Positions 1 through 53,721 of a DNA stretch of 64,000 nt are shown here, in pieces. The notes below the pieces were generated by a model. That model did no database searches. It was not told the origin of the DNA and was given only the letters and a program-made list of their open reading frames with translations. The DNA is taken from NCBI GenBank assembly GCA_016744755.1, contig JADGDT010000002.1:12302-76301 (forward strand). The letters run 5' to 3'. Position 1 is the stretch's first letter; every line of letters begins with the position of its first letter. A program made the translations under genes and the position numbers. The stretch is from Ichthyobacteriaceae bacterium (lineage in GTDB: Bacteria > Bacteroidota > Bacteroidia > Flavobacteriales > JADGDT01).

Positions 1-1
1 T

Positions 2-637
2 AAACAAACTACAGTCAATGAACTTGACGATGTAAGACTTGAAAACCTAAAGGAACAACCATTTGCAAAGGTTCACAATTTTGATGCTTTACAAATCCCT
101 CACACTTACGATAGAAAGTTTGAAGGAGTAGTTACCAATCCCCCTTTTGGAAGTTTAAGCGAGCCAATATTCTTTGGTAAATTCAAGATAAAAGGACTTG
201 AACAAGCAATGAGCCTAAAAGCATTGCAGACTATGAAAGACAGCGGTAAGTGTGCAATTATTATTGGAGGTCACACTGCATGGGATGAGCAAGGAAGAGT
301 AAAGGCAGGAAAGAATAGAATCTTTCTCAACTACCTATATCACTTTTACAATGTTGAAGATATAATTCCTATAAACGGAAGTAAACTTTACTCCAGACAA
401 GGAACATCTTTCGATACAAGATTGATATTAATTAATGGAGCTAAGGAACATCCAGAGGGAGCTTCGCCATTAAAAAATAAACTACATAGTACAGTTGTAA
501 ATACTCATGAAGAGCTTTGGGAACGTGTAGGACTTGAAAGGTCAAAGTTCAAAGCTGAAAGTTCAAAGGATAAAGACAATCTATTAATTCAAGAACTAGA
601 AGCCGAAGCAATAATCATTATACAACTACAAGGGTAA
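2..637 (+). CDS. N6-adenine DNA methyltransferase, C-terminal part (5' end outside window)
   Basis: The frame is open from base 2. Motif IV 'VVTNPPFGS' is present (NPPF at 137-148). The protein ends in the tail SKFKAESSKDKDNLLIQELEAEAIIIIQLQG, which is shared with the next two proteins. Confidence 0.75.
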   Translation, partial: KQTTVNELDDVRLENLKEQPFAKVHNFDALQIPHTYDRKFEGVVTNPPFGSLSEPIFFGKFKIKGLEQAMSLKALQTMKDSGKCAIIIGGHTAWDEQGRVKAGKNRIFLNYLYHFYNVEDIIPINGSKLYSRQGTSFDTRLILINGAKEHPEGASPLKNKLHSTVVNTHEELWERVGLERSKFKAESSKDKDNLLIQELEAEAIIIIQLQG

Positions 638-676
638 ACACCTAAACAAGTTAACAACTAACCGAATAAACATAAT

Positions 677-3600
677 ATGAAATCAAACATAAAATTCTCA
701 AACAACAATCTTACTATCAAGTTTCAGGAAGAACCAAAGGCACACATTTCCTCAAGACTTATCGAGCTAGGATTCAAAGCTACAACCAATAAAACTTTTG
801 TTCGTACAGAAAAATTAGCACAAAACGAACACGATTATTTACAAGGAATGTTTGGAGTTCAAGGTTTGGGAATGGCATACATACCTGCTGCCGAAAAAGG
901 TTTCATATTAGATACAACAGTACCCGATAGTATGGGTTACGAGATGCATATTGCTATTCGTAAGATTAAAAACAAAATAGGAATGTCGTTATTTGATTAT
1001 GTAGCTGAAAAGCTAGATTACGATAGTGATACACTTGTAAAATCTCTTAGTGCAGAGCAAATAGATGCAGTATCACTAGCGATTTATAACATCGAAAAAA
1101 GAAAGCAAGGAGTTATTATTGGCGATCAGACAGGAATAGGAAAAGGACGTACTGCAGGTGCAATGATTCGCTACGGAGTTAAGCAAGGTTTACAACCAAT
1201 ATTTCTATCAGAAAAGCCTAATCTTTTCACAGATTTATACCGTGATTTAGTTGATATTGATAGTAGTGAACTTGTGCCTTTTATAGTAAATGCAAAAGCT
1301 AGTAAGACAAATATAAAAGACAAAGAGGGTACAACAGTTTATACAGCTCCAGAGAAATCAATCCAAGGAAATATTATAAAATCAAAGAAAGTACCAACGA
1401 GTTACAATTTTGTTTGTGCTACATATTCTCAATTCAACAATCCAAAGAAACCTGCAAAGCAGATGTTCTTGCACAAAGTAGCTGAGAACAATATCATCAT
1501 AATGGACGAATCACACAATGCATCGGGCAGTAGTAATACTGGCGAGTTTATGCAAAGTGTTTTACGAGTTTCTAAAGGTGTTGTTTTCCTATCGGCAACA
1601 TTTGCTAAACGACCAGATAATATGCCAATCTATGCTCAAAAAACTTGCATGAGCGATGCTAATATGAGTAAAGAGGATTTAGTTGATGCAATAGCTTATG
1701 GAGGTGTTGCTTTACAAGAAATAATAGCTTCTCAATTAGTTGCAGAGGGTCAAATGATTAGACGTGAACGTTCGTTTGAGGGAATTGAAGTAAACTATAT
1801 AGAGCTTAAAGAAAAAGCCAAAGAACAAGGAGAAGTAGCCGATAAGGTTACAAAGATAATGCGAGATATTATCAAGTTTCAAGAAGACCATATTAACGGA
1901 GAGATTAAGGTTTTAGATAAAATAGCCGCAGGCGAAGGAAAAGAGGTTATAACAAGAAAAGGTACAGAAAAAGCAGGTGTTGACAATGTTCCTTATTTCT
2001 CGAAAGTATTTAATGTTATCAATCAATTATTGTTCTCAATTAACGCTTCTGATGTAGCAGACCATGCAATATCTAGACTAAAAGAAGGTAAGAAACCTAT
2101 CATTGCTTTTGCATCTACAATGGGTAGTTTTTTGGAAGATATAGCAACTCCAGAAGATGTTATAAATGCTGATTTTTCAACGGTACTAGAGAAAGGATTG
2201 GATAGTGTTTTGCGTTATACAGAAAAGGATATTGACGGAGAAAGTGAGAAAAAGATGTTCAATATTTCTGAAATGTCAGACGAAGCAAGGTTTGATTACA
2301 ACAGTATTATAAGCGAGATAGACCAAGTATCAACAGGCATTACAATTAGTCCTATTGATTTAATTGTTCAGAAAATAAACGAAGCAGGTTTCTCAACTGG
2401 AGAAGTTACAGGGCGTAAACTAAACGTTCAGTACAAATCTACTTCATCAAAAAACACTACTGCACTTGTAATGCGTAGAAAGAAACATAATACATCAGAT
2501 TTATTCAGACAATTTAACGATAATGATATTGATTGTTTGCTTATTAATAAGTCGGGTTCTACAGGTGCATCGGCACATGCCATTGTTACACCAAAAGTTA
2601 CTACAGATGAAGTAAAGCAACGAGTAATGATTATTCTACAACCCGAATTAAACATTAGTACAGAAATTCAGAAAAGAGGAAGAATCAACCGTACTGGGCA
2701 GATAAAGAAACCAATTTACGATTATATAATATCGTCAATTCCTGCTCAAAAGCGTTTCATGATGATGCTGAAAAAGAAGCTAAAATCATTGGATGCCAAT
2801 ACTACATCAAATCAAAAAAACAGTAAATCACAATTAAAGTCAGATGATTTCCTTAACAAGTATGGCGACAAGGTTGTAAGGCTTTACATGTTGGAGAATC
2901 CCGAGCTTAACAAGTTACTTGATAATCCTTTGAAGTTTAAAGGAGAAGATAGCGATGATAAAGCAAACGAGGGCGATGCATCAAAAGTAAGCGGACGTGT
3001 TGCAGTATTGCCAGTAAAAGAGCAAGAAAAGTTTTACACTGATATTATTGAGCTTTACAACGATTATGTTGATTACTTGGTGCAAGCAGATGAGTATGAT
3101 TTAGAAGTTACTGTATTAGACCTAAAAGCCGAAACAAAAGATACTCAAGTTGTAATTGCAGGTAAAGGTGGAAAGTCTGTTTTTGGGAATGATACATTCC
3201 TCGAAAAATGTGAGTGTAACGTACTTAAAAAGCCATACAAGAAAGATGAGCTTGAGAAGATAGTTTCTAAAAGTTTGAACGGTAAAAATGCGGATGATAT
3301 ATCTGAAAAAATCGTTGATACTCACGAACAATTTGTAGATAAATATCTAAAAACAAAATTAGACGAAGGACAAAAGAAGTATGCTAAATTATTGGAAAAT
3401 ATAACCAATGAAAAAGCTTATAAACTTATTGGCAATGATGAAAATAATGTAAAAGAAGATTACATAGAAGAACGCACAGAAGCTATTGAAGAAGCTAAGA
3501 TTGAGTTTGCGAATAAACTTTCTTTACAAGTACAAAATCGTAAATCATACTTAAATGGTTTCTTCAAATATTTCAAAGTTGGACACGGTTATAATTATCC

Positions 3601-4645
3601 ATCATTAGGTTACGACCAATCGAGTAATGAGGGTGCAAAATGTATTTTCTTAGGATTTGATATTAAAGAAAAAAGCAAAAACCCTTATGCTCCATCATCG
3701 GTAAAACTAAAGTTTGCAATTTCTGATAGTAGAAAATATATAACATTGGCTTGTAGTGGCGACACTGCAAAAGAAATTGAGCGTATTCAAGGTCGTAGTT
3801 TCAGACTATCCACAGAACAAAAAGAAACGACAATAGACAATTGGGAAGAAGCAACAAAAGGCTTTACAGGAAGCAGGAGAAACAGATATATAGTTAATGG
3901 AAACATACTTCAAGGTTCGGCAGATTTTGCAGGTAAGCTAGTTAGCTACACTACCAAAGGCAGAGGAGTTAAGAAAGGTATTCTAATGGCTGAATCGTGG
4001 TTGCCAACAGAAGAGAACGGTGTAGGTAATTATGTTGTTGCACCAATTGGCAAGCTCGAAAAACAGATTTTAAGTTTACGTTCTGGTGCAACTATGAGTA
4101 CCGAAAACAAAATGACTTTTGCCAAGCATAATTACGAGGATAAGTTTTTGATAATTATGCCAAAAGCAAAAACACATCAATCAATTTTTACTGATAAAGA
4201 TGTGATTAAGCTTTTGGAAAATAGTAGAGATGGTTTTGAGATGATTTCGGGGTCAATGAAAGCAAATGTTTCTATTGAAAAAATGCCAAAGTTTTTAAAG
4301 TTATTGGGCGATAGATTTAGCGTATCAATGAAACTACCTAAGCATTATTTTGATGAACATTTAAACTCAAAATCAAAGAATACAAGTTCATCTGATGCAC
4401 TAACTGATGATGCTATAAAAATGCTTGAAGATGATACAATTTCATTTGAAAAACGACTTAAAAAGCAAAAGCAGAAAAGCCTGTCTGCCGACAAGTCAGG
4501 CTCGAAGCTGAAAGCTGAAAATTCAAAAGAAAGCGATGAAGATATGTTGATGTTGGAACTAGAAGCAGAATCAATAATTATCATGCAGATGCAAGGAAGT
4601 TACAAGCAAGTAGCAGGATTTACTAATCAAAGAAGGATGTTTTAA
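677..4645 (+). CDS. Strawberry-notch (Sbno)-type superfamily-2 helicase, 1322 aa
   Basis: P-loop 'IIGDQTGIGKGRTAG', DExH box 'IIIMDESHNASG', and a C-terminal helicase block 'LLINKSGSTGASAHA ... ELNISTEIQKRGRINRTGQ' typical of Sbno-like helicases. The C-terminus carries SKLKAENSKESDEDMLMLELEAESIIIMQMQG. Confidence 0.8.
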   Translation: MKSNIKFSNNNLTIKFQEEPKAHISSRLIELGFKATTNKTFVRTEKLAQNEHDYLQGMFGVQGLGMAYIPAAEKGFILDTTVPDSMGYEMHIAIRKIKNKIGMSLFDYVAEKLDYDSDTLVKSLSAEQIDAVSLAIYNIEKRKQGVIIGDQTGIGKGRTAGAMIRYGVKQGLQPIFLSEKPNLFTDLYRDLVDIDSSELVPFIVNAKASKTNIKDKEGTTVYTAPEKSIQGNIIKSKKVPTSYNFVCATYSQFNNPKKPAKQMFLHKVAENNIIIMDESHNASGSSNTGEFMQSVLRVSKGVVFLSATFAKRPDNMPIYAQKTCMSDANMSKEDLVDAIAYGGVALQEIIASQLVAEGQMIRRERSFEGIEVNYIELKEKAKEQGEVADKVTKIMRDIIKFQEDHINGEIKVLDKIAAGEGKEVITRKGTEKAGVDNVPYFSKVFNVINQLLFSINASDVADHAISRLKEGKKPIIAFASTMGSFLEDIATPEDVINADFSTVLEKGLDSVLRYTEKDIDGESEKKMFNISEMSDEARFDYNSIISEIDQVSTGITISPIDLIVQKINEAGFSTGEVTGRKLNVQYKSTSSKNTTALVMRRKKHNTSDLFRQFNDNDIDCLLINKSGSTGASAHAIVTPKVTTDEVKQRVMIILQPELNISTEIQKRGRINRTGQIKKPIYDYIISSIPAQKRFMMMLKKKLKSLDANTTSNQKNSKSQLKSDDFLNKYGDKVVRLYMLENPELNKLLDNPLKFKGEDSDDKANEGDASKVSGRVAVLPVKEQEKFYTDIIELYNDYVDYLVQADEYDLEVTVLDLKAETKDTQVVIAGKGGKSVFGNDTFLEKCECNVLKKPYKKDELEKIVSKSLNGKNADDISEKIVDTHEQFVDKYLKTKLDEGQKKYAKLLENITNEKAYKLIGNDENNVKEDYIEERTEAIEEAKIEFANKLSLQVQNRKSYLNGFFKYFKVGHGYNYPSLGYDQSSNEGAKCIFLGFDIKEKSKNPYAPSSVKLKFAISDSRKYITLACSGDTAKEIERIQGRSFRLSTEQKETTIDNWEEATKGFTGSRRNRYIVNGNILQGSADFAGKLVSYTTKGRGVKKGILMAESWLPTEENGVGNYVVAPIGKLEKQILSLRSGATMSTENKMTFAKHNYEDKFLIIMPKAKTHQSIFTDKDVIKLLENSRDGFEMISGSMKANVSIEKMPKFLKLLGDRFSVSMKLPKHYFDEHLNSKSKNTSSSDALTDDAIKMLEDDTISFEKRLKKQKQKSLSADKSGSKLKAENSKESDEDMLMLELEAESIIIMQMQGSYKQVAGFTNQRRMF

Positions 4646-5781
4646 TGAGTATAGGAACTATAAATTTTGGAAACTCAGGGACTAAGTTCGATAGAGCTTG
4701 GGATAATACTGTTTGGGATGAGAAAGCAAAGGATTATTTAATGCTTGCCAATATCAATACTGAAAATGGAGATATATCTTGGTGGGTTAAGAAGCCAAAC
4801 TCAGAACAGAAAAAGGCGGTAGAAAAATATGCTTCTCAATTTGTTGATGATGATTTGTTGTTATTGGAACTCGAAGCTGAAGCTGTACTTGTGTTACAAA
4901 AACAAGTAGTTACTACAAGTAATAAAATTGACCAGGGAAAAGGTAAAAACAAACATGATTTAATTTATGAAAAGGCAATATCTGAACTCAAATACAATCA
5001 AGAAGATAGCTTTTGTAAAATTATTGAGAATGATTTGAAAACTTCATTATCGGAAGATGAAAAACAGAAGTATGTAGCTATGCTAGTGAATGATACTAGC
5101 AATAAAGTAAAGTTTAAAGCAGGAAATAAGATTCTAAAAGATGAATATAAATTTCAACCAGTTTTTCCTCAATCAATTAAAGTTGCAGAACCAAAGGATT
5201 TAAGTTTAAGAGGAAAAGTTGTTGCTATGGCTAAATATTCAGCCACTAGAAAGGATGAATATCATGATATTTATGGATATGTGTATCATGACATGAGATA
5301 CTTGGTAGCAACAGATGCTCATCAGCTTGTAGTTGTTCATGTAAAAGAAATGAGAGATGATAAATACTATGCTTTTGATGGTGGAATGTCTTTTCCAAAA
5401 GGAACATTTCCAAAATACCGAAGTGTAATACCAAAGAGAATAAAAAACAACAATGTATTAGACTTGAAACAATTGATAGAACAGGTAAAAGGAGTTGAGA
5501 AAGCAAATTCATACTTCAATAAGAAGACTAACATATTACCCGCTGTAAAACTACTATTCAAAGAGAATAGTAAAATGATATTTACAAGTCCACAAATTAC
5601 ACTTAAAGCTTTAATGTCCTTATGGATGACAGGTGTTACAAAGGTTGACATATCAGTTTCAGAAAATCAAAGTATTGTTTTTTATGATGCTGAGAACGAT
5701 AAAACACTAGCAGTTGTAATGGCTTTGATGTCGGGTACAGACACTCTTTTTACACCAATATTAGGAAACGGAATAAACTAA
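4645..5781 (+). CDS. Hypothetical protein with a DnaN (beta sliding clamp)-like C-terminal region
   Basis: The ATG overlaps the helicase stop (TAATG at 4643-4647). The N-terminal ~90 aa end in DDDLLLLELEAEAVLVLQKQ. Later segments 'RYLVATDAHQLVVVH', 'GTFPKYRSVIPK' and 'LAVVMALM' parallel the DnaN signatures VATDGHRLAV, FPDYRRVLPK and YVVMPMRL, which I recalled from E. coli DnaN and did not compute. Confidence 0.5.
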   Translation: MSIGTINFGNSGTKFDRAWDNTVWDEKAKDYLMLANINTENGDISWWVKKPNSEQKKAVEKYASQFVDDDLLLLELEAEAVLVLQKQVVTTSNKIDQGKGKNKHDLIYEKAISELKYNQEDSFCKIIENDLKTSLSEDEKQKYVAMLVNDTSNKVKFKAGNKILKDEYKFQPVFPQSIKVAEPKDLSLRGKVVAMAKYSATRKDEYHDIYGYVYHDMRYLVATDAHQLVVVHVKEMRDDKYYAFDGGMSFPKGTFPKYRSVIPKRIKNNNVLDLKQLIEQVKGVEKANSYFNKKTNILPAVKLLFKENSKMIFTSPQITLKALMSLWMTGVTKVDISVSENQSIVFYDAENDKTLAVVMALMSGTDTLFTPILGNGIN

Positions 5782-5798
5782 CTATAAAAATATATAAG

Positions 5799-6674
5799 AT
5801 GAACTTAACAGTAAATAATTACGAAAGTGCAGTAGAAAATATAGATTTTTCAAAGCTACCAGAAGCTATACGAATGGTTGATGATAAGTGGGGACAATTC
5901 TACAAGTTCTACGGAAAAAGTGATAAGATTACAGAGATGGTTGACAATCATCTAAAAAGTCTAAAACCTTACATCAAGGGAGATAAGAAGGTAATTCTTA
6001 AAAAGACAGTCACTAAACCAAGCAAACCTAAAACGGTTAAAGTTACACCTCATAAAAAGGCAGTAAGCAAAGCTGTGAAATCAAAAATTATAGTAAAGAC
6101 GCAACGCATTGCGTCTCAACGAAAACAAGCTGTCAGAAAGCAAAATGAAGTAGAACTAATGCCTTTGGAAGTACGTTTCATAAAACGATACTTAACACTG
6201 CACGATAAGAGAGTAACAGAAAAACAAGTATCAACTTTCTATAAGGCAATTCAGAAAGCATCGGTTGAAAAAACAATTAGAAAAAGTGGAAAGTATGCTA
6301 ATGAGATAATGAAAATCAGCAAGGATTTATCTCAAACTTATAAAGAGATGAACAACTCATGCAAGTTTGAAATACCAAGTTCGTTACATGTTAAACTTAA
6401 AAATATAACAGATAGTTATGGTGTTACTCCTGCAATTGCATTGATAAAAAGATTCATCAGTTTATATGGTAGAATTACTAAAGAGAAAGCTTCAAGGCTT
6501 CTTAAAAGTATAGAAAACTCAAAGGAAAATGGCAAAGTAAAAAGTTCTGACAATGCTTATAGCAGAGTTGTTGAAATAGAAAATCATCTTGAAAAATATT
6601 TAGATAGTGATAAGTTATTTATAACGGATGTTCAGCTTAACGGATTAAGAGGAATAGCAGGCTTGGGAAAGTAG
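5799..6674 (+). CDS. Lys-rich hypothetical protein (possible DNA-binding)
   Basis: 291-aa ORF with a basic tract KKTVTKPSKPKTVKVTPHKKAVSKAVKSK and two similar helical modules (VRFIKRYLTLHDKRVTEKQVSTFYKAIQKA / IALIKRFISLYGRITKEKASRLLKSIENS). No recognisable family. Confidence 0.4.
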   Translation: MNLTVNNYESAVENIDFSKLPEAIRMVDDKWGQFYKFYGKSDKITEMVDNHLKSLKPYIKGDKKVILKKTVTKPSKPKTVKVTPHKKAVSKAVKSKIIVKTQRIASQRKQAVRKQNEVELMPLEVRFIKRYLTLHDKRVTEKQVSTFYKAIQKASVEKTIRKSGKYANEIMKISKDLSQTYKEMNNSCKFEIPSSLHVKLKNITDSYGVTPAIALIKRFISLYGRITKEKASRLLKSIENSKENGKVKSSDNAYSRVVEIENHLEKYLDSDKLFITDVQLNGLRGIAGLGK

Positions 6675-6712
6675 AAGCCATTACTTCCAACAAACCTAAA
6701 GGACGTAGTGGC

Positions 6713-7444
6713 ATGACTAAAACTAATCAAAATAGCTTTGATAATTTTGAACTTAAACCAACTAATCAATCTAAAGGAAGCGAGTTGCTTAATGGTATTT
6801 CAAATTTATACGATGCTATAAATCAGAAACAAGTTAATCCAAAAATGAAAACACAAAACCATTCTGAAAGGTCTATTTTAACTGATAGTAATGTTGTGTC
6901 AACTTCTCAATTGGCTAAAGCAAATTTTGATACAGTTAAGATTGGAGGAAAGTTCGGTCAATTATTAGGAGAGCCATACAATCCATTTTATATGATGATA
7001 TATGGCGATAGGTTTAACGGTAAAAGTTCTGTAGCAATGTTGCTTGCAGGCACATTGTCAAAGAAGAGAAACAAGGTGCTGTATATCTCAAACGAAGAGG
7101 GAGTAAAAGCTTCACTACAAGAAAAATTAGTAAGGTTAAACATTACAAATCCTATTGATTTTGTGGAAGATTATAACTCTGAAATGTTTGCTAGGTATGA
7201 CGCTGTTTTCATGGATAGCGTGCAAACAATAGGGTTAAAGTCAGAAGATTTTAAACTACTAAAAAGGCAATACCCCCAAACATCTTTTGTGATGGTATTT
7301 AAAGCCAATAGAGATGGAACGAGCAAAGGAGGTACAGATTGGGAACATGATGTTGATGCAATTATGCACATAGAAAAAGGCTCGGCTACAATGGAGAAAA
7401 ACCGTTTTCCGAATGGTAGTAATGGAACTATAAAGATTTTTTAA
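6713..7444 (+). CDS. RecA-superfamily P-loop ATPase (RadA/Sak4/KaiC-like)
   Basis: Walker A 'YGDRFNGKSS', Walker B-like 'AVFMDSV', and 'VMVFKANRDGTSKGGTDWEHDVDAIMHIEKG', which resembles the RadA/DnaB-type C-terminal core. Confidence 0.55.
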   Translation: MTKTNQNSFDNFELKPTNQSKGSELLNGISNLYDAINQKQVNPKMKTQNHSERSILTDSNVVSTSQLAKANFDTVKIGGKFGQLLGEPYNPFYMMIYGDRFNGKSSVAMLLAGTLSKKRNKVLYISNEEGVKASLQEKLVRLNITNPIDFVEDYNSEMFARYDAVFMDSVQTIGLKSEDFKLLKRQYPQTSFVMVFKANRDGTSKGGTDWEHDVDAIMHIEKGSATMEKNRFPNGSNGTIKIF

Positions 7445-7446
7445 TA

Positions 7447-7794
7447 ATGATAGCAAATACAAGTGTAGAATTATTCACAGTAATTATTGGAGGTCTTGGT
7501 ACAATTGGTGTAGGCACAATATCTTATGTTATTAAACGGTCAATTACTACCAATGCGACCAAAGAGAATGTTTTAAATCAAGCTCGTTTATTAGAGAAAG
7601 ATATTCAACATCACGATAAAGAGATATTGGCTTGTAAGTTGAACCAATCGCTAATAGAATCAAGATTTATAGAGTTAAAAGACTCGTTTAAAGACAAGTA
7701 CGTGACAAAGCAAGAATTAAAGGATCAAATGAAATTGATAGATAGCAAGTTAGAAGTAATATTAAAATTCGTAAAGCATGAGCATATTCAGTAA
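7447..7794 (+). CDS. N-terminally membrane-anchored coiled-coil protein (i-spanin-like topology)
   Basis: One N-terminal TM segment (LFTVIIGGLGTIGVGTISYVI) followed by a charged heptad-like helix. It sits immediately upstream of, and overlaps, the holin-like gene. Confidence 0.4.
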   Translation: MIANTSVELFTVIIGGLGTIGVGTISYVIKRSITTNATKENVLNQARLLEKDIQHHDKEILACKLNQSLIESRFIELKDSFKDKYVTKQELKDQMKLIDSKLEVILKFVKHEHIQ

Positions 7795-8173
7795 GCTAAT
7801 AGGAAAAGGAACATCAGAAATTTTAAAAGAAGGAACAAAACTTATAGATGAAATTTTCACTACCAAAGAGGAAAAACTAGAAGCCAAAAAAGAATTGTTC
7901 AGACTAGCAATTACCGACAAAGACAGTGCAAGGAAAATGTATTCTCTAGACAGTACTTTACAGAAAGTATTTGCCATATTTTTCCTTGTATCGTGGGTAT
8001 TTCTTACTGTTTTAATTCTCAACTATTTTGTATTCGAAAAAGTAGATTTATTAGACTGGCAAATTGCATTTGTCAGCACCATTTACGGAGGTATATCTAC
8101 TAAGTTAGGCACAATAGTAGATTTCTTGTTTGGTGGTTCGTCAGCAAGTGAAAAAGTTAACCTTAAAGGATAA
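7778..8173 (+). CDS. Holin-like membrane protein (DUF3154 / 'holin of 3TMs' type)
   Basis: The N-terminus 'MSIFSKLIGKG...LIDEIFTTKEEKLEAKKELFRL' resembles the DUF3154 family N-terminus, and two C-terminal TM segments follow. It overlaps the previous ORF by 17 nt. Confidence 0.5.
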   Translation: MSIFSKLIGKGTSEILKEGTKLIDEIFTTKEEKLEAKKELFRLAITDKDSARKMYSLDSTLQKVFAIFFLVSWVFLTVLILNYFVFEKVDLLDWQIAFVSTIYGGISTKLGTIVDFLFGGSSASEKVNLKG

Positions 8174-8176
8174 ATT

Positions 8177-8629
8177 ATGGAGTTAGTTAATACTAGAATA
8201 GCAAGCGATAATGAAAGTACGTTAGGACTTCTTACAGTAAATGGCAAGAAGTTCTCATTTGTGATTGAAGATGAAGAACGAGAGGTAAAAGTAAAAGGAG
8301 AAACTAGAATACCTGCAGGTAAATATCAAGTTAAATTTAGAAAAGAACTTTCTCCATTAACTGAAAAGTATAGGGCTAAATATCCTTGGTTTACTTATCA
8401 CTTGGAACTGACTAATGTTCCTAACTTTAAATATGTGTATATCCATATCGGAAATTTTGAGAGTAGTACAGATGCTTGTCAAGTTGTTGGGAATAAAGCA
8501 GGGTTTGATGGTAATAACCACTTTAGAAACTTTGAGAGTGTGGATAATTTTAAGCGGTTGTATTTGGTGGTTTCTGAGTCTATTGAACGTGGGGGAGATG
8601 TTTGGTATGAGATTGTTGATACGAATTGA
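8177..8629 (+). CDS. DUF5675-like protein (possible His/Cys cell-wall enzyme, endolysin candidate)
   Basis: 150 aa. 'STLGLLTVNGKKFSFVIEDEER...RIPAGKYQVKF...YIHIGNFESSTDACQVVG' matches my recollection of the DUF5675 pattern (TLG..., IPaGtY, iH.GN....GC). It lies directly after the holin-like gene. Confidence 0.5.
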   Translation: MELVNTRIASDNESTLGLLTVNGKKFSFVIEDEEREVKVKGETRIPAGKYQVKFRKELSPLTEKYRAKYPWFTYHLELTNVPNFKYVYIHIGNFESSTDACQVVGNKAGFDGNNHFRNFESVDNFKRLYLVVSESIERGGDVWYEIVDTN

Positions 8630-8691
8630 TAAATAATGTGTTTAGAATTGAAAAATCCCATTATCAAGGTTAGTTTGATGATGGGATTTTT
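8327..8691 (+). repeat. Direct repeat copy A (3' two-thirds of the DUF5675 gene plus terminator)
   Basis: Aligns by eye with 12333-12686 at roughly four-fifths nucleotide identity, including the stop codon context 'gattgataaata' and the terminator hairpin 'aaatcccattatcaag'. Confidence 0.85.
8653..8691 (+). terminator. Rho-independent terminator of the DUF5675 gene
   Basis: Hairpin aaatcccattatcaa / ttgatgatgggattt followed by a T-run. Confidence 0.7.
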
Positions 8692-8807
8692 GGTGTAATA
8701 ACTTAAATATATTTTTACCAAAAAAAATGAGTTTTCATCTTGATTATATACAATCAAGTCATTACATATGATAAAGAAAGTACTATATTAAGAAAAACTA
8801 ATTACTA

Positions 8808-11800
8808 TTATTCTTTTGACTTATTCGATTTTATGCTTTCAATAAACCTTCCCTTATCTTGTTTTTTTATTTGTCCAATATCATGCTTTATTTCGGACAT
8901 AAGCGTTAAATAAAATTTATCTAGTGAAGGATCATTATTACGTAAATGATAGTAGGACATTATTTTAAGATAACTCAAATCTTTGATATATCTTGATTTA
9001 GCTGTTTTTACAAAACTTTTTATTTTTTCAGGATATTCGCTACCTTTTATGTCTGAGTAAATAAATATGGTCATGAATTTTTCAAACTCTGAGATGTTAA
9101 CTGAATCAATATCTCTTTCCATTTTATCTAGAAGAATTGTTCTTATTTTTTTTGAACCTAACCAATTATACACTACAACCTGATGAATAAGTGGTAGAAT
9201 TTTTATGAATAATGGGAAATCAATATTCTTAGGAAAATGATCTGGCTCTTTTTTATAGTTTTGATAATATTTCAGTAAGGAGTCTCTATATAGCATTAAA
9301 AATGAAATAGAACTAGTAATAACATTACTATAGGAGCTGTTTTTTAATTCAAAACTATCAACATCTTCACTATTCTTAAGAACATTAGCGGAAAGTTTAA
9401 GAACTTTATCTATATGGCTCTGTGTTTTTAAATCTGAAATATCTTTATTTTGAATAGTCTGTTTAACTTGAGTATTTGTTAATGCTTCATCATAAATATC
9501 ATTTTCTTGTTCTGAGGTTAGTTTTGTTGAAGCTCTTTTTACATCAATATTAAACGAAATAGTATCTTTATTATTCTTAGATTCAAGAACAGTATCAATT
9601 TTACTCCAATTATTAATGATATCAGAATTAAACCTTTCAAATGCAATGTTTAATTTTTTTTGAGTAAATTTTAAAATATCTGCATCATCACCTTTTAACC
9701 CAGTATAATAGTTTATTTCTTCTAGATAGTTTAAGTAATTATCATCTTTAAAAACATTTGATTTAAAATCTTTATCGTAATCAAAAAGTAAAGCCAAAAA
9801 GAAATGGAAATAGAAGGCTGATTTAAATTTGATAGTATTATCATCATGATGGAATAATATTCCTCTTTTGATAAAATCTTCTAAAATCATATGTGGTTTT
9901 CCTGTAAACCTCGTTTTCAGATATTGTGTCACATACTCTAATAATTTAGAATACTCAACAGAATAACTCATATCAGGATTTCCATTATCATGCATGAATT
10001 TGGAAATATATGAGAGGAGACGTTTTTTATTTTTGAAACCAAATGTTTCACTGTAGATATTTTCAATTTTAGTCTTTTCGAGTAAATTTTCAATAAATAA
10101 TTCTACAAGGATTGAGTTATTTATTGGTTTTTTTTCTTGTTTTTCAAAAATCCATAAAAATAGAGTTATTGATAGCGGAGTTTTAGGTAATCCAAAGTCT
10201 CCAAAGCTTTTAATCAACTTTTGCATATTATCTTGGAGGTCTACTTCACTGCCAACAAACCATTTTTTTATTAATTGTTTTATTTCATTTGAACCAAAAC
10301 TTTGAATAAAGGCCAATTTAAAATCGAAAATAGGATTATAATCTAAATGCTTAATAGGAATTACATCTTCTAGGGTTTGTGTTGAAGTTGTAATCAGTTG
10401 AATTGTTTGGTTTTGTTTTAAAAAATTATTTAATTTATTAATCTCGTTTGAAATTGTTCCATTGTAATAGAGATCATCAACCAATAATAGTAACTCATTT
10501 GAAGAAATAAAACTATCAATTTCACTACTTGGGATACCTAGGAATTCTTTAACTAACTTTTTAGGATCACTCTTTTTTAGTTCTCCAAATTTTATAAGGA
10601 TAGGTATTTTATTATATTTATTATAATTTTTTGTTAATTCAAGGAACATTTTATCAAGTAGAATTGTTTTGCCAGATTCTTTCATTCCATAAATGAGAAA
10701 ATTAGAATTGTCAATAATAATATCTGTAATAGAATATTTCACTGTACTTTCTTCTTTCAAAGAACCTTGCGGTGTATTCAATATTATTGGATGGACAAAC
10801 AGGTTTTCAATCGTACATTCAATTGATGTATTAGCATCAGACATCAAAATATGGTCATTTAGTCTATCACTGTATCTATTTCCTATATTTATAATTAGTT
10901 CTTGATTAAAATTGAACTTTGTTAAGGATTCATCCCTTGGAATTATAAATTTTCTAATACCATCTTCTGTCCCAACTTCTGTATTAGGAACAAACTTTTT
11001 GTGTTTATCTAGGTATTTTCTAGATACTACTTTGAAGTATTCTTTTGGCTCAAATTCAACTATCGAATAACCATTTTGATGCTTTATATCTGTAGGATTA
11101 TCTGCAATTGTTGATGTAGCAATAGATACAAATAGACTTCCAAATAAATCTTTAATATAATTTGCATCTAATTCATGAACGTGTCCATTTAGAAGTATAT
11201 CATAGTTTCTAGATAATAGAGGTTTTATTGCTTCTCTATCAAAATCTTGTAGAAATTCAATAGGATGATGCGATAATGCAATTTTTATATCACAGTTCTC
11301 AATACTACGTAAAGAATTATCTATCTGTCTTCTACCAATCAGTAATTTTCCTTTATCATTATCATCTTTAGATAACCAAGAACTATTTAAACACGTAACA
11401 CCTATATTATATGATTTTGTTTTAAGAGTGAAACTATTTTCAAAATTTGAAATTTCACCAGAGTAGTTTTCATTCTTATAAAAATCTTTTTGCCAATTTA
11501 GATAATTTTCAATACGACTTAGATGTAAGGATTTCTGGTGATTATTTTTTATAAACTCATCAAGAGAATTTTCATCTTTTAGGTTTGCATTTAGTCCAGC
11601 TTCTGTAACTGCATCAATTTCTTTCCTATTTATATCATGATTACCTGGTACAACAAATATTCTTCCTTTTAAAATTGGATTTAACTCAATTAACTTGTCA
11701 AAAAAAACTGTTTCAAGAATGATGTAAGCTTCCTCTTCATTTTTGAAGCTAGATGCTCCTTTATTTATTAAATCACCAGTAATACATACTACTGTATCAT

Positions 11801-11912
11801 CATTTACTTTTGATTGTAAATCCTTAGCTAGTGCTGAAATTAATTGTTCTTTGTTAAGTGAGATATCTTCATTTTCTAAATGGAAATCTGAGATGTGTAT
11901 TATTTTTAACAT
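8808..11912 (-). CDS. Calcineurin-like metallophosphoesterase fused to a NACHT/STAND NTPase (1034 aa); candidate defence protein
   Basis: The N-terminal MPE motifs occur in order: IHISDFH, ITGDLINKG, VPGNHD, ALSHHP, LNGHVHE. They are followed by Walker A 'LIYGMKESGKTILL', Walker B 'LLLLVDDLYY' and the NACHT-like segments 'FIQSFGSNEIKQLIKKWF' and 'TPLSITLFLWIF'. The C-terminus is helical and repeat-free. Confidence 0.75.
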   Translation of the reverse strand: MLKIIHISDFHLENEDISLNKEQLISALAKDLQSKVNDDTVVCITGDLINKGASSFKNEEEAYIILETVFFDKLIELNPILKGRIFVVPGNHDINRKEIDAVTEAGLNANLKDENSLDEFIKNNHQKSLHLSRIENYLNWQKDFYKNENYSGEISNFENSFTLKTKSYNIGVTCLNSSWLSKDDNDKGKLLIGRRQIDNSLRSIENCDIKIALSHHPIEFLQDFDREAIKPLLSRNYDILLNGHVHELDANYIKDLFGSLFVSIATSTIADNPTDIKHQNGYSIVEFEPKEYFKVVSRKYLDKHKKFVPNTEVGTEDGIRKFIIPRDESLTKFNFNQELIINIGNRYSDRLNDHILMSDANTSIECTIENLFVHPIILNTPQGSLKEESTVKYSITDIIIDNSNFLIYGMKESGKTILLDKMFLELTKNYNKYNKIPILIKFGELKKSDPKKLVKEFLGIPSSEIDSFISSNELLLLVDDLYYNGTISNEINKLNNFLKQNQTIQLITTSTQTLEDVIPIKHLDYNPIFDFKLAFIQSFGSNEIKQLIKKWFVGSEVDLQDNMQKLIKSFGDFGLPKTPLSITLFLWIFEKQEKKPINNSILVELFIENLLEKTKIENIYSETFGFKNKKRLLSYISKFMHDNGNPDMSYSVEYSKLLEYVTQYLKTRFTGKPHMILEDFIKRGILFHHDDNTIKFKSAFYFHFFLALLFDYDKDFKSNVFKDDNYLNYLEEINYYTGLKGDDADILKFTQKKLNIAFERFNSDIINNWSKIDTVLESKNNKDTISFNIDVKRASTKLTSEQENDIYDEALTNTQVKQTIQNKDISDLKTQSHIDKVLKLSANVLKNSEDVDSFELKNSSYSNVITSSISFLMLYRDSLLKYYQNYKKEPDHFPKNIDFPLFIKILPLIHQVVVYNWLGSKKIRTILLDKMERDIDSVNISEFEKFMTIFIYSDIKGSEYPEKIKSFVKTAKSRYIKDLSYLKIMSYYHLRNNDPSLDKFYLTLMSEIKHDIGQIKKQDKGRFIESIKSNKSKE

Positions 11913-12183
11913 GTCATTTTTTTGGGTTTATTATTTTTTAGTTATTGTTAGCTATATTACAGTTAATATGTTATAATTTTTAATAAAGCTCTATACAGTT
12001 ATCAACAAAAAGCAGTTAAACTTTAGAGTTATTATAATTTGGGGGTATCGTTAAATACTCAATAGGGGCAATTCCCCAAAAAAAATGTATTATGAAAGAG
12101 TAATTTAGATAAAAAAAACTTAAATATTATTAACAATTGTTTTTCTATTTATTACGTTATATTGACATAAAAAGTATGGAAAC

Positions 12184-12215
12184 ATGTATGTATGTATGTA
12201 TGTATGTATGTATGC
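12184..12215. repeat. Tetranucleotide microsatellite (ATGT)7 + ATGC
   Basis: Counted by hand: seven perfect ATGT units at 12184-12211, then ATGC. Confidence 0.95.
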
Positions 12216-12332
12216 ACTCTAGTTTGAAAAAAGGAATTGAAAAAGCACTTGTATATACTGTGTTGTAGGCCTATAGGTATTTGTCAAAAATCACTAACAC
12301 AGACTTTATAATAATAGTTGTAAAGACCAAGT

Positions 12333-12622
12333 CAAGTTTAGAAAAGATATAATACCATTGACTGAGAAGTATAGAAAAAACATTCTTGGTTTACTTGGAA
12401 CTGACTGATGTACCTTATTTCTCCTATGTGTATATTCATATTGGTAATTTTGAGAGTAGCACAGATGCTTGTCAGCTTGTTGGTAATAAGGCAGGATTTG
12501 ATGGTAATAACCACTTTAGGAACTTTGAGAGTGTGGATAATTTTAGGCGTTTGTATTTGGTGGTTTGTGAAGCCATTGAGAATGGAGAGAGTGTTTGGTA
12601 TGAGGTTGTGGATGCAGATTGA
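12333..12622 (+). pseudogene. 5'-truncated, frameshifted second copy of the DUF5675-like gene (direct repeat copy B)
   Basis: It encodes ...LELTDVPYFSYVYIHIGNFESSTDACQLVGNKAGFDGNNHFRNFESVDNFRRLYLVVCEAIENGESVWYEVVDAD, homologous to residues ~50-150 of the 8177-8629 product. The first ~50 codons are missing, and a 7-nt deletion (atcactt) relative to copy A breaks the frame near 12385. Confidence 0.8.
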
Positions 12623-12642
12623 TAAATAGTATCTAAAATTGA

Positions 12643-12686
12643 AAATCCCATTATCAAGTATCAACTTGATAATGGGATTATTTTTG
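12643..12686 (+). terminator. Terminator hairpin, second copy
   Basis: aatcccattatcaagt / acttgataatgggatt followed by atttttg. Homologous to the hairpin at 8653-8691. Confidence 0.65.
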
Positions 12687-12731
12687 CCATATAAATAGGA
12701 GTTATATTATACTTGTCTTATTTTATCAATG

Positions 12732-13964
12732 TTAAAAAACAGGGTTGACATCTGATTCTCTTAATTTTTGAGAAAGCATGAGCATATCAGAGCTGATTTT
12801 TTCATTTGTAATACGTGCATAAATTTGAGTGGTTTTTATATTGGTATGACCAAGCATCTTACTAACTGTTTCAATCGGTACACCTTTGGATAAGGTAATG
12901 GTAGTAGCAAACGTATGCCGAGCTAAATGAAAAGTGATATTTTTATCAATGCCGCATACATCTGCAATTTCTTTCAAATAAGCATTTGTCTTCTGGTTGG
13001 TAGGTATTGGTAATAATACTCCATTAGGTAAACCTTTATATTTTTCAAGAATCATCAGTGGAATGTCTAATAAGGGTATAACTGCTTTTACATTTGTTTT
13101 TTGACGTTTGGTAGTTATCCAAGAGTTATTATCGAAGCCTTTACTAATATTTGTTTTCTTGAGTTTTTTAATGTCGATATATGCTAATCCAGTATAACAG
13201 GAAAAAATAAATATATCACGTATTCTTTCTAACCGTTCAGTGTTAAATTCTTTCTCCATTATACGTTGCAGCTCATCATCTGTCAAGTATCCACGATCAA
13301 CTTTTTCCAAAGTAATTTTGTAATTCGCAAATGGGTCAGATATTAGTTTACCATCTTTTTGAGCTGATATAACAACACTTTTAAATTTTTGAATGAATTT
13401 AGCAGATGTATTATAATTGCATCGGCATTGAATACTAAGGTGATTTTCAAACCCAACAATAAAAGAGTGATTAATTTCCCTTAAATCAATATCTGATAAA
13501 TTATGTTCTTCTTTAATATATGAAGCTAAGTGTTTTCTACATACTTCAGCTTTCTGATAAGTAGCTTTTGATTTAGTTATACCTACCAGTTTTTTTAGAT
13601 TGTTATTACTTTCTTCAAAAAGCTCCAATAATAAAAATTGTTCTTGCCCAATTCCTAAGAACGTATTTTTTACTTTTTCTGCAGTAACAACTGTTTCTCT
13701 AACAATAAGGTTGTTGTATGTTTTATGGATAGAGGTCTTTATTTCTTCTAAAAGCGAATTTATTGATTTCGCTTGGGTGCTTCTTCCTTTTGCTTTCCCT
13801 AAATCAACACTCCAATCAGCAGATTTGATAAATTGCTTTGTACTGAACTGAGATAATTTTCCATTAACAGTGATTCTTGCAATAATAGGTGTAGTTCCAT
13901 CTTTTTTGGTGGCGCTCTTTTTAATGTAAAAAAGAACTTTAAATGTACTTCTCATAAACTTCAT
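12732..13964 (-). CDS. int: Tyrosine-type site-specific integrase (Bacteroidota phage/CTn integrase type)
   Basis: The N-terminus 'MRSTFKVLFYIKKSATKKDGTTPIIARITVNG' is typical of Bacteroidota integrases. The catalytic region reads 'HLARHTFAT...LGHTNIKTTQIYAR'. The true start may be the ATG at 13955. Confidence 0.9.
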   Translation of the reverse strand: MKFMRSTFKVLFYIKKSATKKDGTTPIIARITVNGKLSQFSTKQFIKSADWSVDLGKAKGRSTQAKSINSLLEEIKTSIHKTYNNLIVRETVVTAEKVKNTFLGIGQEQFLLLELFEESNNNLKKLVGITKSKATYQKAEVCRKHLASYIKEEHNLSDIDLREINHSFIVGFENHLSIQCRCNYNTSAKFIQKFKSVVISAQKDGKLISDPFANYKITLEKVDRGYLTDDELQRIMEKEFNTERLERIRDIFIFSCYTGLAYIDIKKLKKTNISKGFDNNSWITTKRQKTNVKAVIPLLDIPLMILEKYKGLPNGVLLPIPTNQKTNAYLKEIADVCGIDKNITFHLARHTFATTITLSKGVPIETVSKMLGHTNIKTTQIYARITNEKISSDMLMLSQKLRESDVNPVF

Positions 13965-14192: not shown

Positions 14193-14227
14193 GTCTTATT
14201 CCTGTCTTTTATTGACATTTTGTTGAG

Positions 14228-14312
14228 CGGAGAAAGAGGGATTCGAACCCCCGGAGGTGTGACCCTCGCTAGTTTTCAAGACTAGTGCATTCGACCACTC
14301 TGCCATTTCTCC
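14228..14312 (-). tRNA. tRNA-Ser (anticodon UGA)
   Basis: The reverse complement reads GGAGAAATGGCAGAGTGGTCGAATGCACTAGTCTTGAAAACTAGCGAGGGTCACACCTCCGGGGGTTCGAATCCCTCTTTCTCCG. It has a 7-bp acceptor stem, anticodon loop CTTGAAA, a long variable arm and T-loop GGTTCGAATCC. Confidence 0.9.
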
Positions 14313-14556: not shown

Positions 14557-17489
<2,933 letters not shown>

Positions 17490-51783: not shown

Positions 51784-51800
51784 TGTATTGCTATGGATTA

Positions 51801-52604
51801 TTATTTAAGTTCTATTGGGTTGTTATTCTTTTTCAACTGCTTTTTTACATGTAATTTATCATCAGCAGAATGGGATTGCATAGCATAGTCACTTGCTATT
51901 TTTTTCAACGCTATTCTTTGAATTGCACAATAGTTTTCTCTACTTGTATTACTGTAAAATATCTTATTCTCTGGATACAAAATCTCAGTTTCTTTTATTG
52001 TTTTTTCAAAGCTATTCAATTCAAAAGTATAATGATTTTTTGTGTCATAAATTTTAATAATTAAACCAGGTAGTCCCGAAAATTTGTAAGGGCCATCTCT
52101 AAAAGGTATTTCGGTTGTAAACCAAGCTTCGTATTCTCTACCTCCATAGTTGCATGTAGCTAGTTGACATTTATATCCACTTATTACTTTGTTATCTCTC
52201 TTTAAAGTCCAATTAAAATCATTGATTTTTTCATTGATACAAAACTTGCCACCCGAAAAAGTCTTATCATAATAATTTATTTCATTCTTATTATAATCCT
52301 TTATTATGTTGTAATTAAATTTTGTTGTGGGCATATCTGATGGTATTACAAGCTTACCTGTTTTCTTGTAACTAGCTATAATTAATTGATCAAGTGAATC
52401 CTTAAATGTTGATATTTTACTATAAAAAATAGAATTATCACTACCTATATTAAGTATCATAACTTCAGTATTCATATTATCTATAACTGTAGAATCTCGA
52501 GTATATGTAATACTGTACTCTGCCACATACTTTGTTGTATCAATAGTTTGTGCAGAAATATTTATTGCAAAAAATGTAACTAGAATTAATGTGTATTTCA
52601 TCAT
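51801..52604 (-). CDS. GLPGLI family protein
   Basis: Signal peptide and the family signature 'FSGLPGLIIKIYD'. Start taken at the MMKYTL methionines. Confidence 0.8.
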   Translation of the reverse strand: MMKYTLILVTFFAINISAQTIDTTKYVAEYSITYTRDSTVIDNMNTEVMILNIGSDNSIFYSKISTFKDSLDQLIIASYKKTGKLVIPSDMPTTKFNYNIIKDYNKNEINYYDKTFSGGKFCINEKINDFNWTLKRDNKVISGYKCQLATCNYGGREYEAWFTTEIPFRDGPYKFSGLPGLIIKIYDTKNHYTFELNSFEKTIKETEILYPENKIFYSNTSRENYCAIQRIALKKIASDYAMQSHSADDKLHVKKQLKKNNNPIELK

Positions 52605-52671
52605 TATGTTATATATATTAAAAAATTCAACAAGCATACATTATTATATGCTTGTTGATTACTTAAATTAG

Positions 52672-52878
52672 TTAGCAAACTGCATCTTGAAATCCTCTGA
52701 GATTATCTAGTTGTTCCTGAACAGTATTCCCACATGCATGGTAAGGCACACCGCATTTGGTTGTAGCACTAGCACACCCCCACTTACTTGTTGAAACCGA
52801 AGCCTCTACATTATTTGGCATAAAACTAAAAGCACCCAATCCAAGAGCAAATGCTCCAATTAAAAATTTCTTTTTCAT
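52672..52878 (-). CDS. Small secreted four-cysteine peptide precursor (68 aa)
   Basis: Sequence: MKKKFLIGAFALGLGAFSFMPNNVEA|SVSTSKWGCASATTKCGVPYHACGNTVQEQLDNLRGFQDAVC. It has a Sec-type signal peptide with an AxA-like site. The internal ATG at 52878 is preferred over the 108-aa ORF-track start. Confidence 0.6.
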   Translation of the reverse strand: MKKKFLIGAFALGLGAFSFMPNNVEASVSTSKWGCASATTKCGVPYHACGNTVQEQLDNLRGFQDAVC

Positions 52879-52988
52879 TTTAAAAGATTTTTGAATTAAT
52901 AAAAATAGTTTTAATCTCAATTGAGTGAGTTGCAACTCATTGTTAACAGAGGCTAAACTATATAATTCAAAAACAACTGGGGTTATGA

Positions 52989-53012
52989 TTAACCTCAAAA
53001 GAATTACGGTTT
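52989..53012 (-). promoter_or_regulatory. Operator-like motif upstream of the peptide gene
   Basis: TTAACCTCAAAAGAATTACGGTTT (plus-strand reading) matches 56005-56028 at 20 of 24 positions. It lies 111-134 nt upstream of the ATG at 52878. Confidence 0.45.
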
Positions 53013-53057
53013 TTCATTACTTATAATTGGATTATTTTTCGTAAGGATAATATATAT

Positions 53058-53720: not shown

Positions 53721-53721
53721 A

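Follow-up and report, generated by a model that had tools for sequence, protein, structure and literature searches.

A window of 64,000 nucleotides from an Ichthyobacteriaceae bacterium (GenBank assembly GCA_016744755.1, contig JADGDT010000002.1, positions 12,302 to 76,301) was analysed around a gene located in its left part, within a temperate phage-like element. The gene codes for a protein composed of an N-terminal metallophosphoesterase (MPE) domain, a central STAND NTPase and a C-terminal α-helical domain, hereafter the MPE-STAND protein. With a probability of about 75%, we interpret this protein as a STAND immune sensor that acts against phages as a single protein and belongs to the Bacteroidota branch of the PDC-S60 family, the sister branch of that of the Escherichia coli system DS-8, carried as cargo by an element integrated at a tRNA-Ser gene. 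In this Bacteroidota genome it is a probable abortive-infection or superinfection-exclusion gene of the element. The interpretation is directly supported by the domain architecture, the intact catalytic and Walker residues, the family membership, the distribution as a mobile single gene and the position in the cargo slot.

Domain organization and conservation

At least 220 homologues have the same length as the MPE-STAND protein. An open frame of 3.1 kb at 26% GC, together with hundreds of full-length homologues, far exceeds what chance could produce. A preliminary description of the gene, made from the DNA letters and their translations, had quoted motifs that we all found in the translation, in the expected order and place. 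The phosphoesterase motifs are IHISDFH (residues 4-10), ITGDLINKG (44-52), VPGNHD (88-93), ALSHHP (212-217) and LNGHVHE (241-247). The NTPase is marked by the Walker A motif LIYGMKESGKTILL (405-418), the Walker B motif LLLLVDDLYY (473-482) and the segment TPLSITLFLWIF (578-589).

Profile searches confirmed the MPE assignment of that description: Pfam Metallophos (PF00149) matches residues 2-247 with an E-value of 5.9e-15 and a score of 56.6 bits, for a cut-off of 21.5. Its assignment of the NTPase to NACHT/STAND was right as to STAND and too specific as to NACHT. Pfam NACHT, AAA_14 and AAA_29 give sub-threshold matches over residues 398-552, NACHT itself (PF05729) scoring 17 bits (E 0.0054) for a cut-off of 26.7. 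Pfam nSTAND_NTPase4 (PF24406) passes its threshold over residues 650-706 (30.4 bits, cut-off 27) and is present in nearly all homologues. By Pfam thresholds the central NTPase is a member of the nSTAND4 clade, not of NACHT proper.

We aligned 21 homologues and found residues of all five MPE motifs to be invariant (D9, H11, G46-D47, G90-N91-H92-D93, H215-H216 and G243-H244-x-H246), as are G409, E412, G414-K415-T416 and D479 of the NTPase and P576, P579 and L580 of the GxP-type motif. In a larger set of 95 homologues, reaching down to 22% identity, the invariant residues are D9, H11, G46, D47, G90, N91, H92, H215, G243, H244, H246, E412 and G414, and K415 and D479 are kept in at least 90% of the sequences. 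Family-wide conservation in this set extends to the C-terminal domain, for example N847, E849, P907, K922, D954 and K983. NACHT/STAND proteins typically have a conserved sensor-1 arginine behind the strand that comes next after Walker B. Between D479 and P519 neither alignment contains an invariant arginine, and sensor 1 was not assigned from the structure.

Predicted structure

The AlphaFold2 model of the whole protein, based on the alignment of 21 sequences, has a mean pLDDT of 83.5 and a pTM of 0.66. It begins with a β-rich phosphoesterase domain (residues 2-323) and a long linker helix. The strands of the P-loop domain span residues 404-409, 436-441, 474-479, 505-511 and 531-536, and are followed by a helical domain, by a small unit resembling a winged helix (about 626-712) and by an all-helical C-terminal region. 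A Foldseek search of the Protein Data Bank (PDB) with the whole model returned YydB of Bacillus subtilis as top match (9a6c_B, E 2.1e-11). The next matches include NOD2 (5irm, E 3.8e-9), Cdc6/ORC proteins, Avs4-phage portal (8dgf, E 2.4e-6), NLRP3 (8sxn, E 3.1e-6) and purple acid phosphatase. That NOD2 and NLRP3 rank ahead of Cdc6/ORC supports a NACHT-like fold of the NTPase module. Taken with the match to Avs4, they identify the central module as a STAND NTPase with a NACHT-like fold. A profile built on the 95 sequences also reached NLRC4 in the PDB, at E 0.055. The order of effector, NTPase and C-terminal domain that the preliminary description had put forward is supported.

The C-terminal 320 residues were also modelled alone, giving 15 helices with a pLDDT of 86.5 and a pTM of 0.87. 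The region is all-helical in both models, free of repeats and well conserved across the family, in agreement with the helical, repeat-free C-terminus of roughly 300 residues described previously. The structural check proposed for it yielded this confident helical model and no PDB neighbour at E ≤ 0.001. Matches to 14-3-3-like helical proteins (best E 0.14, TM-score about 0.2) were dismissed as noise.

Membership of the PDC-S60 family

The preliminary description presented the gene as an undescribed single-gene defence candidate and proposed to ask PADLOC whether a known system claims it. One does: PADLOC-DB v2 already holds a full-length model, PDC-S60 (PDLC05051), which aligns over positions 1-1020 of 1027 with residues 2-1032 of the protein (E 4.4e-138, 460 bits), and the term "undescribed" has to be given up. 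Homologues at 33% and 25% identity also match PDLC05051 end to end. PDC-S60 and the MPE-STAND protein are of the same family with no structural difference: in each case a single gene combines a metallophosphoesterase with a STAND NTPase and a helical C-terminal part. The phage defence candidates (PDC) are 145 untested predictions made by guilt-by-embedding, their source genes being embedded within BREX, DISARM and type I restriction-modification loci (bioRxiv 10.1101/2024.01.29.577857). No paper naming PDC-S60 was found in the literature searched. The other PADLOC models gave a single weak match at E ≤ 1, to mad8 (E 0.0066), and none to the models of Avs types 1-5, of bNACHT01/09 or of NLR-like proteins. 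Calcineurin-like phosphoesterases had already been listed as N-terminal effectors of bacterial NACHT/STAND proteins in earlier comparative-genomic papers.

To estimate the size of the family, we used HMMER on 1.84 billion representatives of clusters at 50% identity. The scan retrieved 5756 proteins at E ≤ 1e-3 and 716 clusters at E ≤ 1e-30. Among the 150 best matches, almost every one aligns over its full length and counts 1030-1060 residues, the closest relative being 66% identical to the MPE-STAND protein. Where a source is named, it is in most cases one of the Bacteroidota (Flavobacterium, Kaistella, Myroides, Mucilaginibacter, Bacteroides, Parapedobacter, Saprospiraceae and Chitinophagales), and a member from Paenibacillus is 33% identical. 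A scan of IMG/VR with single-sequence patterns gave no match, while patterns from the alignment of 95 sequences detected relatives of 23-32% identity on six viral contigs.

The homologues lie in varied contexts. One adjoins Peptidase_M78+DUF4411, transposases and an integrase; another stands alone between NUDIX and EPSP synthase genes; others are found beside an insertion sequence and RteC, between ABC-F and DinB genes, or in an element with integrase, HTH_17, DUF5712, Fic and transposase genes, and further homologues have yet other, variable surroundings. No partner gene recurs across the contexts examined, apart from a backbone of Strawberry-notch-type (Sno) helicase and ATPase genes in three of them, as expected for a single-gene system of the PDC-S60 type. 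Such a distribution is that of a single gene which moves and needs no partner, and the single-gene part of the earlier proposal stands.

Five longer family members (P0151, P0176, P0184, P0197 and P0201; 1206-1250 residues) have a SMEK_N domain added at the N-terminus (PF21941, with E-values of about 1e-35 to 1e-38), and no Pfam Metallophos match was reported for these longer members. Their sequences suggest that effectors have been added or replaced within the family. In another member, P0259, which is 25% identical to the MPE-STAND protein, residues 7-252 match the PADLOC model PDLC00736, "Effector - Endonuclease" (E 1.4e-20). At the profile level, this match ties the effector domain of the family to a class of effectors that PADLOC lists under a different defence system.

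Relationship to the tested system DS-8

DS-8 is a single-protein metallophosphatase-NACHT system of an E. coli strain, described in the DefensePredictor study, which protects against phages (PMC13092281). Protection is lost in the catalytic mutants D52A and N84A and in K375A, which affects the Walker A lysine of the NACHT ATPase (PMC13092281). These data overturn the earlier statement that a phosphoesterase effector at this position had only been noted computationally. We compared DS-8 (WP_032203427.1, 1014 residues) through its 399 N-terminal residues, and its C-terminal part through the NCBIfam profile alone. The N-terminus of DS-8 aligns with residues 5-428 of the MPE-STAND protein (24% identity, E 7e-15), and D52, N84 and K375, the residues essential in DS-8, correspond to D47, N91 and K415. 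The NCBIfam profile DS8_antiphage (NF053861) aligns over positions 1-741 of 994 with residues 6-762, and the NCBIfam anti-phage phosphoesterase DS9_1 matches at E 3.3e-13. Judged by its profile score, the MPE-STAND protein is a homologue of DS-8 and not an equivalog.

The two proteins meet in the PADLOC models. A protein search with the 399 residues of DS-8 returned truncated relatives only. Three relatives of DS-8 (81%, 40% and 40% identical to it) have PDLC05050 as their best PDC-S60 model (E 3e-45 to 2e-52) and PDLC05051 as their second (E 1.5e-24 to 3.3e-32), and two of the three contain PF24406. Since the relatives of DS-8 and the MPE-STAND protein both match PDC-S60 models, DS-8 and the MPE-STAND protein stand for two branches that diverge deep within a single catalogued family.

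A variable cargo slot in a phage-like element

The features of the element are listed in Table 1. All genes of its left part lie on the plus strand, in the order small open reading frame (ORF), Sno helicase, two genes of unassigned function, AAA_24-like ATPase, phrog_462 gene, holin-like gene and DUF5675 gene; the phrog_462 gene is small and is named here after its weak match to this PHROG, annotated "lipoprotein". The MPE-STAND gene is the sole ORF of at least 60 codons between the DUF5675 gene and the integrase, frames overlapping listed features aside. It was said to be antisense to the other genes of the element, which is correct for the genes at 1-8629 and wrong for the integrase, located on the same strand. 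Beyond the tRNA-Ser a PrmC-like housekeeping gene starts at 14557; the succession of integrase, tRNA-Ser and housekeeping gene indicates that the element ends at the tRNA. Its left end falls outside the window. A full-length homologue of the Sno-type helicase is found in Bacteroides phage BS-TP4 (31.6% identity, 94% coverage), and the helicase also matches part of the giant family phrog_14770.

Table 1. Positions of the MPE-STAND gene, its domains and the surrounding features in the window (aa, amino acids; AF2, AlphaFold2)
Feature	Position	Strand	Evidence
Strawberry-notch-type helicase, 1322 aa	677-4645	+	AAA_34, Helicase_C_4, ResIII
Holin-like gene	7778..8173	+	phrog_3427 holin, E 2.7e-7
DUF5675 gene, last plus-strand gene of the element	8177..8629	+	PF18925, E 1.1e-22
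Repeat copy 1: 3' two-thirds of the intact DUF5675 gene and terminator-like hairpin (~8653-8692)	8319..8709	+	Repeat search, local alignment
Complete MPE-STAND gene	8808..11912	-	ATG start, 1034 aa and stop; full-length PDC-S60 match
C-terminal all-α domain, presumed sensor/regulatory (aa 713-1034)	8811..9776	-	Separate AF2 model; family-wide conservation
Helical domain with GxP-type motif GLPKTPL (aa 574-580), then winged-helix-like domain (aa 541-712 overall)	9777..10292	-	nSTAND_NTPase4, invariant residues, AF2
P-loop nucleotide-binding domain, STAND NTPase (aa 395-540); Walker A G409-T416, Walker B D478/D479	10293..10730	-	Weak Pfam, invariant residues, Foldseek
N-terminal calcineurin-type metallophosphoesterase domain, presumed effector (aa 1-325)	10938..11912	-	PF00149, invariant motifs, AF2 β-sandwich aa 2-323, Foldseek
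Upstream non-coding region, 407 nt, 24% GC; expected promoter location	11913..12319		Sequence, GC
Repeat copy 2: 5'-truncated DUF5675 fragment and terminator hairpin (12644-12679)	12320..12697	+	Repeat search, local alignment
Tyrosine integrase of the element	12732..13964	-	Pfam Phage_integrase, Arm-DNA-bind_5, Phage_int_SAM_5; phrog_1
tRNA-Ser (TGA), likely integration site and right-hand element boundary	14227..14312	-	ARAGORN

The gene was reported to be more AT-rich than its neighbours, which is borne out: its GC content is 26.2%, against 33.4% for the element genes at 1-8629 and 31.2% for the whole window. It is the third lowest among 42 large ORFs, about 1.9 standard deviations under the mean. 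The cargo segment is bracketed by a diverged direct repeat, whose two copies are 83% identical over 376 nucleotides. Copy 2 holds an ORF of 78 codons (12386..12622) and is a pseudogene fragment that marks the other edge of the cargo. At 83% identity, the repeat does not result from a recent duplication. The pair is probably the scar of a recombination between two related elements that brought in or retained the cargo, and suggests an event such as a module exchange or the collapse of tandem prophages.

Comparison with related elements revealed what else can occupy this interval. The 45.8 kb viral contig IMGVR_UViG_2917530833_000001 (L016) has homologues of the integrase (74% identical), the ATPase (70%) and the holin-like gene (67%). 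Its holin-like homologue is followed by a GH108 endolysin that contains a PG_binding_3 domain, and the 6 kb between lysin and integrase (1313-7951) carry entirely other genes, which code for a GT4 glycosyltransferase, a radical-SAM/SPASM enzyme, a tyrosine phosphatase, an O-methyltransferase, a WG-repeat protein and an AAA regulator. In L015, whose integrase is 79% identical, yet other genes lie downstream of the integrase. These differing contents show that, within this lineage, the cargo placed between lysis genes and integrase varies, and the preliminary description was right to see a cargo slot there. The cargo status of the MPE-STAND gene rests on its low GC content, on the flanking diverged repeats and on the variable content of the slot in L015 and L016.

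Several further observations were made in this region and elsewhere in the window. The DUF5675 gene sits where L016 has its endolysin, and by analogy its product may be an uncharacterised lysis protein. The radical-SAM/SPASM enzyme of L016 has a weak pVip-like PADLOC match (E 6.6e-8), and its AAA regulator resembles RtcR/PspF. The AT-rich region upstream of the MPE-STAND gene includes a (GTAT)n microsatellite of about 10 units (12174-12213), and a run of this kind near a promoter may vary in length. A sigma-70 scan of this upstream region assigned no promoter, the sigma-70 consensus being uninformative for Bacteroidota, and the motif TAnnTTTG is absent from the minus strand at 11913-12330. Two other stretches of the window have a low GC content (24-29%), at 27959-29761 and 49213-55719; when checked for defence genes, neither gave a PADLOC match. 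One includes an ORF of 600 codons with no Pfam or PADLOC match, the other a cluster of genes for a CarboxypepD_reg protein, a Porph_ging protein, a response regulator and a TPR histidine kinase.

Recurrent linkage to the Sno-helicase/ATPase module

In L007, a Bacteroidota metagenome-assembled genome (3613-13111), and in L018 (1621-11105), the MPE-STAND gene lies directly downstream of homologues of the small ORF, the Sno-type helicase and the ATPase, on the same strand. Housekeeping genes come next in both, namely UppS, BamA, OmpH and FtsZ in L007. Among these two elements and that of the window, the helicases are 51-62% identical and the MPE-STAND proteins 51-55%. Such a similar divergence of backbone and cargo suggests, from sequence comparison, a long residence in this element lineage, always at an edge. 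In L016, which is a closer relative, the 9 kb next to the integrase do not contain the gene. The linkage is consistent with an accessory defence gene, yet it is the main observation that this interpretation leaves unexplained.

The linkage also speaks for a non-immune function, in which the protein would be a DNA-metabolism or repair factor of the element, combining in one chain a nuclease and an ATPase of the SbcCD/Mre11-Rad50 type, or else a housekeeping phosphatase. We consider this very improbable. Its association with a Sno-type helicase and an AAA_24-type ATPase in three elements, the annotation of phrog_100 as "SbcD-like subunit of palindrome specific endonuclease" and the location of some homologues among housekeeping genes would fit such a role. 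Against it, the ATPase is not an ABC/SMC ATPase of the Rad50 type but belongs to the STAND NTPases and has a winged helix (nSTAND4, with the folds of NOD2, Avs4 and NLRP3), the contexts are not conserved, the gene is missing from the closer relative L016, and the experimentally validated relative DS-8 is a defence protein. The SbcD model TIGR00619 scores 15 bits for a cut-off of 77.65, and no SbcC-like neighbour was found in the window. Given the STAND fold and this sub-threshold score, we rejected a fusion of the Rad50/Mre11 type.

Proposed mode of action and nature of the effector

The mode of action that we propose for an anti-phage MPE-STAND protein follows the STAND paradigm, because of the analogy with Avs and bNACHT proteins and of the mutant data on DS-8. 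In the resting state the protein would be an ADP-bound, autoinhibited monomer. Recognition of a cue from the infecting phage by the C-terminal α-helical domain would permit nucleotide exchange and oligomerisation of the STAND module, which would gather the N-terminal MPE domains and switch them on. The active phosphodiesterase would then destroy an essential phosphoester pool and keep the phage from replicating, an outcome that the infected cell would most likely not survive. The resident element would benefit through superinfection exclusion and through the protection of its host. We infer the trigger, the oligomerisation, the substrate and the abortive outcome by analogy. As preferred substrate we would guess nucleotides (NTP, dNTP or NAD-type small molecules), and nucleic acid in second place.

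The profile of 95 sequences was searched against the PDB and matched Lmo2642 (E 3.5e-7), SbcD (E 3.5e-5), Mre11 (E 4e-4) and Rv0805/Icc (E 7e-4 to 9e-4), all four matches spanning the shared N-terminal motifs only. According to the authors of the DS-8 study, the closest fold to the DS-8 metallophosphatase is that of SMPDL3A/B (PMC13092281). Together with Lmo2642 as top sequence match and the Foldseek match to purple acid phosphatase, this leans towards hydrolysis of small-molecule nucleotides. The endonuclease-model match of P0259 and the habit of STAND effectors make a nuclease nearly as likely.

An effector of this second kind, in which the activated MPE domain would act like Mre11/SbcD and degrade phage and host DNA or RNA non-specifically, is in our view possible rather than probable. 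The effectors of Avs3 and Avs4 are PD-(D/E)xK nucleases, and STAND defence proteins such as Avs and bNACHT most often act by destroying nucleic acid. The profile matches SbcD and Mre11 over motifs I-III, PHROGs labels the homologous family phrog_100 "SbcD-like", and the MPE domain of P0259 matches the endonuclease effector model of PADLOC. However, the SbcD and Mre11 matches are confined to the first 95 residues or so, which are common to all MPEs, and the MPE-STAND protein itself has no match to PDLC00736 at E ≤ 1. The best sequence match is Lmo2642, the best structural matches outside the NTPase are YydB and purple acid phosphatase, and the nearest fold reported for DS-8 is that of SMPDL3A/B (PMC13092281).

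A third possibility is that the target of the phosphodiesterase is a second messenger, a cyclic or linear (oligo)nucleotide, which it would degrade either to regulate other immune pathways or as a counter-defence of the prophage against cyclic-nucleotide immunity such as CBASS, Pycsar or type III CRISPR. Lmo2642 and Rv0805/Icc, among the nearest PDB sequences, are presumably cyclic-nucleotide phosphodiesterases, and carriage of the gene by a phage-like element would suit a counter-defence. The authors of the DS-8 study favour a cyclic nucleotide substrate by analogy with the cGAMP-cleaving SMPDL3A (PMC13092281), and Kibby et al. place calcineurin-like phosphoesterases among the "nucleotide-signal-generating/degrading" NACHT effectors. 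Signal degradation is improbable because alone it would not stop a phage, while E. coli is protected by DS-8 without further components. The homologue contexts examined contained neither a cyclase nor a partner of the CBASS type. Furthermore, we know of no anti-defence phosphodiesterase fused to a STAND switch of 700 residues.

Several points weigh against the interpretation of the MPE-STAND protein as an anti-phage sensor acting in this way. The anti-phage function of the Bacteroidota branch is drawn by analogy from DS-8, experiments existing for the DS-8 branch only. The score against the DS-8 profile is 186.1 bits for an equivalog cut-off of 790 (E 7.9e-55), and that profile leaves roughly the last 270 residues unaligned. 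With the alignment ending this early, the sensing part may function in another way. Across the family the C-terminal domain shows strong conservation instead of diversification, which is unusual for a sensor of phage proteins, and a tblastn search of 50,697 GenBank phage genomes with the protein found no homologue. The repeated travel with the Sno helicase and ATPase in three diverged elements may reflect a role in the biology of the element itself rather than pure cargo. Finally, the sequence profile appears about equally distant from small-molecule phosphodiesterases and from nucleases, so that the substrate is not assignable from it.

A bolder and doubtful version of our reading is that, in the Bacteroidota branch, a sensing module of a new type, the 320-residue α-domain, drives a nucleotide-depleting phosphoesterase, and that the gene has stayed in the Sno-helicase element lineage because it serves these elements as their usual means of fighting rival phages. 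The similar divergence of cargo and backbone (51-62% identity) is the reason for seeing the gene as a long-term resident of these elements. To our knowledge, depletion of the nucleotide pool by a phosphoesterase has not yet been demonstrated as the output of any STAND immune protein.

Comparison with known systems

The MPE-STAND protein does not represent a new kind of system: its family is catalogued as PDC-S60 and a distant branch is validated by DS-8. Its value is that of a clean, intact, prophage-borne example from Bacteroidota, with direct evidence on the variable cargo slot between lysis genes and integrase. We are aware of almost no defence systems tested in Bacteroidota.

YydB, the top structural match (target-normalised TM-score 0.48 over 356 columns), is likewise a metallophosphoesterase paired with a second protein, YydD. 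It differs in that YydD-YydB is an arrangement of two proteins, known from an integrative model, and not a fusion. A literature search on YydB/YydD found nothing on function. On the basis of the models, YydD-YydB may be a split analogue of the MPE-STAND fusion. SMPDL3A, purple acid phosphatase and Lmo2642 share the calcineurin-like fold and the motifs of the dimetal site. In contrast to the MPE-STAND protein, they are stand-alone or secreted and lack an NTPase switch. As the likeness to these three enzymes is at the superfamily level only, it allows no inference on the substrate.

The Avs/AVAST and bNACHT proteins (for example Avs4, 8dgf, and bNACHT01/25) have the same succession of an N-terminal enzymatic effector, a central STAND NTPase and a C-terminal domain. 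In the MPE-STAND protein, the C-terminal domain is a compact, conserved α-domain instead of a sensor made of TPR- or LRR-type repeats, and the effector is a phosphoesterase and not a PD-(D/E)xK nuclease, SIR2, TIR or protease.

DS-8 shares with the MPE-STAND protein the domain order, the size, the single-gene organization and the conserved essential residues. The two differ in their preferred models (PDLC05050 for the relatives of DS-8, PDLC05051 for the MPE-STAND protein), in their hosts (Enterobacteria for DS-8, Bacteroidota for the branch described here) and in their C-terminal domains, which are not demonstrably homologous, the profile alignment stopping at position 741 of 994. The substrate of DS-8 is still to be identified according to its authors (PMC13092281), and both proteins raise the same questions: what the MPE effector hydrolyses to stop the phage, and what the C-terminal domain senses. 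A very divergent second branch with the same catalytic residues would be a useful comparator for both.

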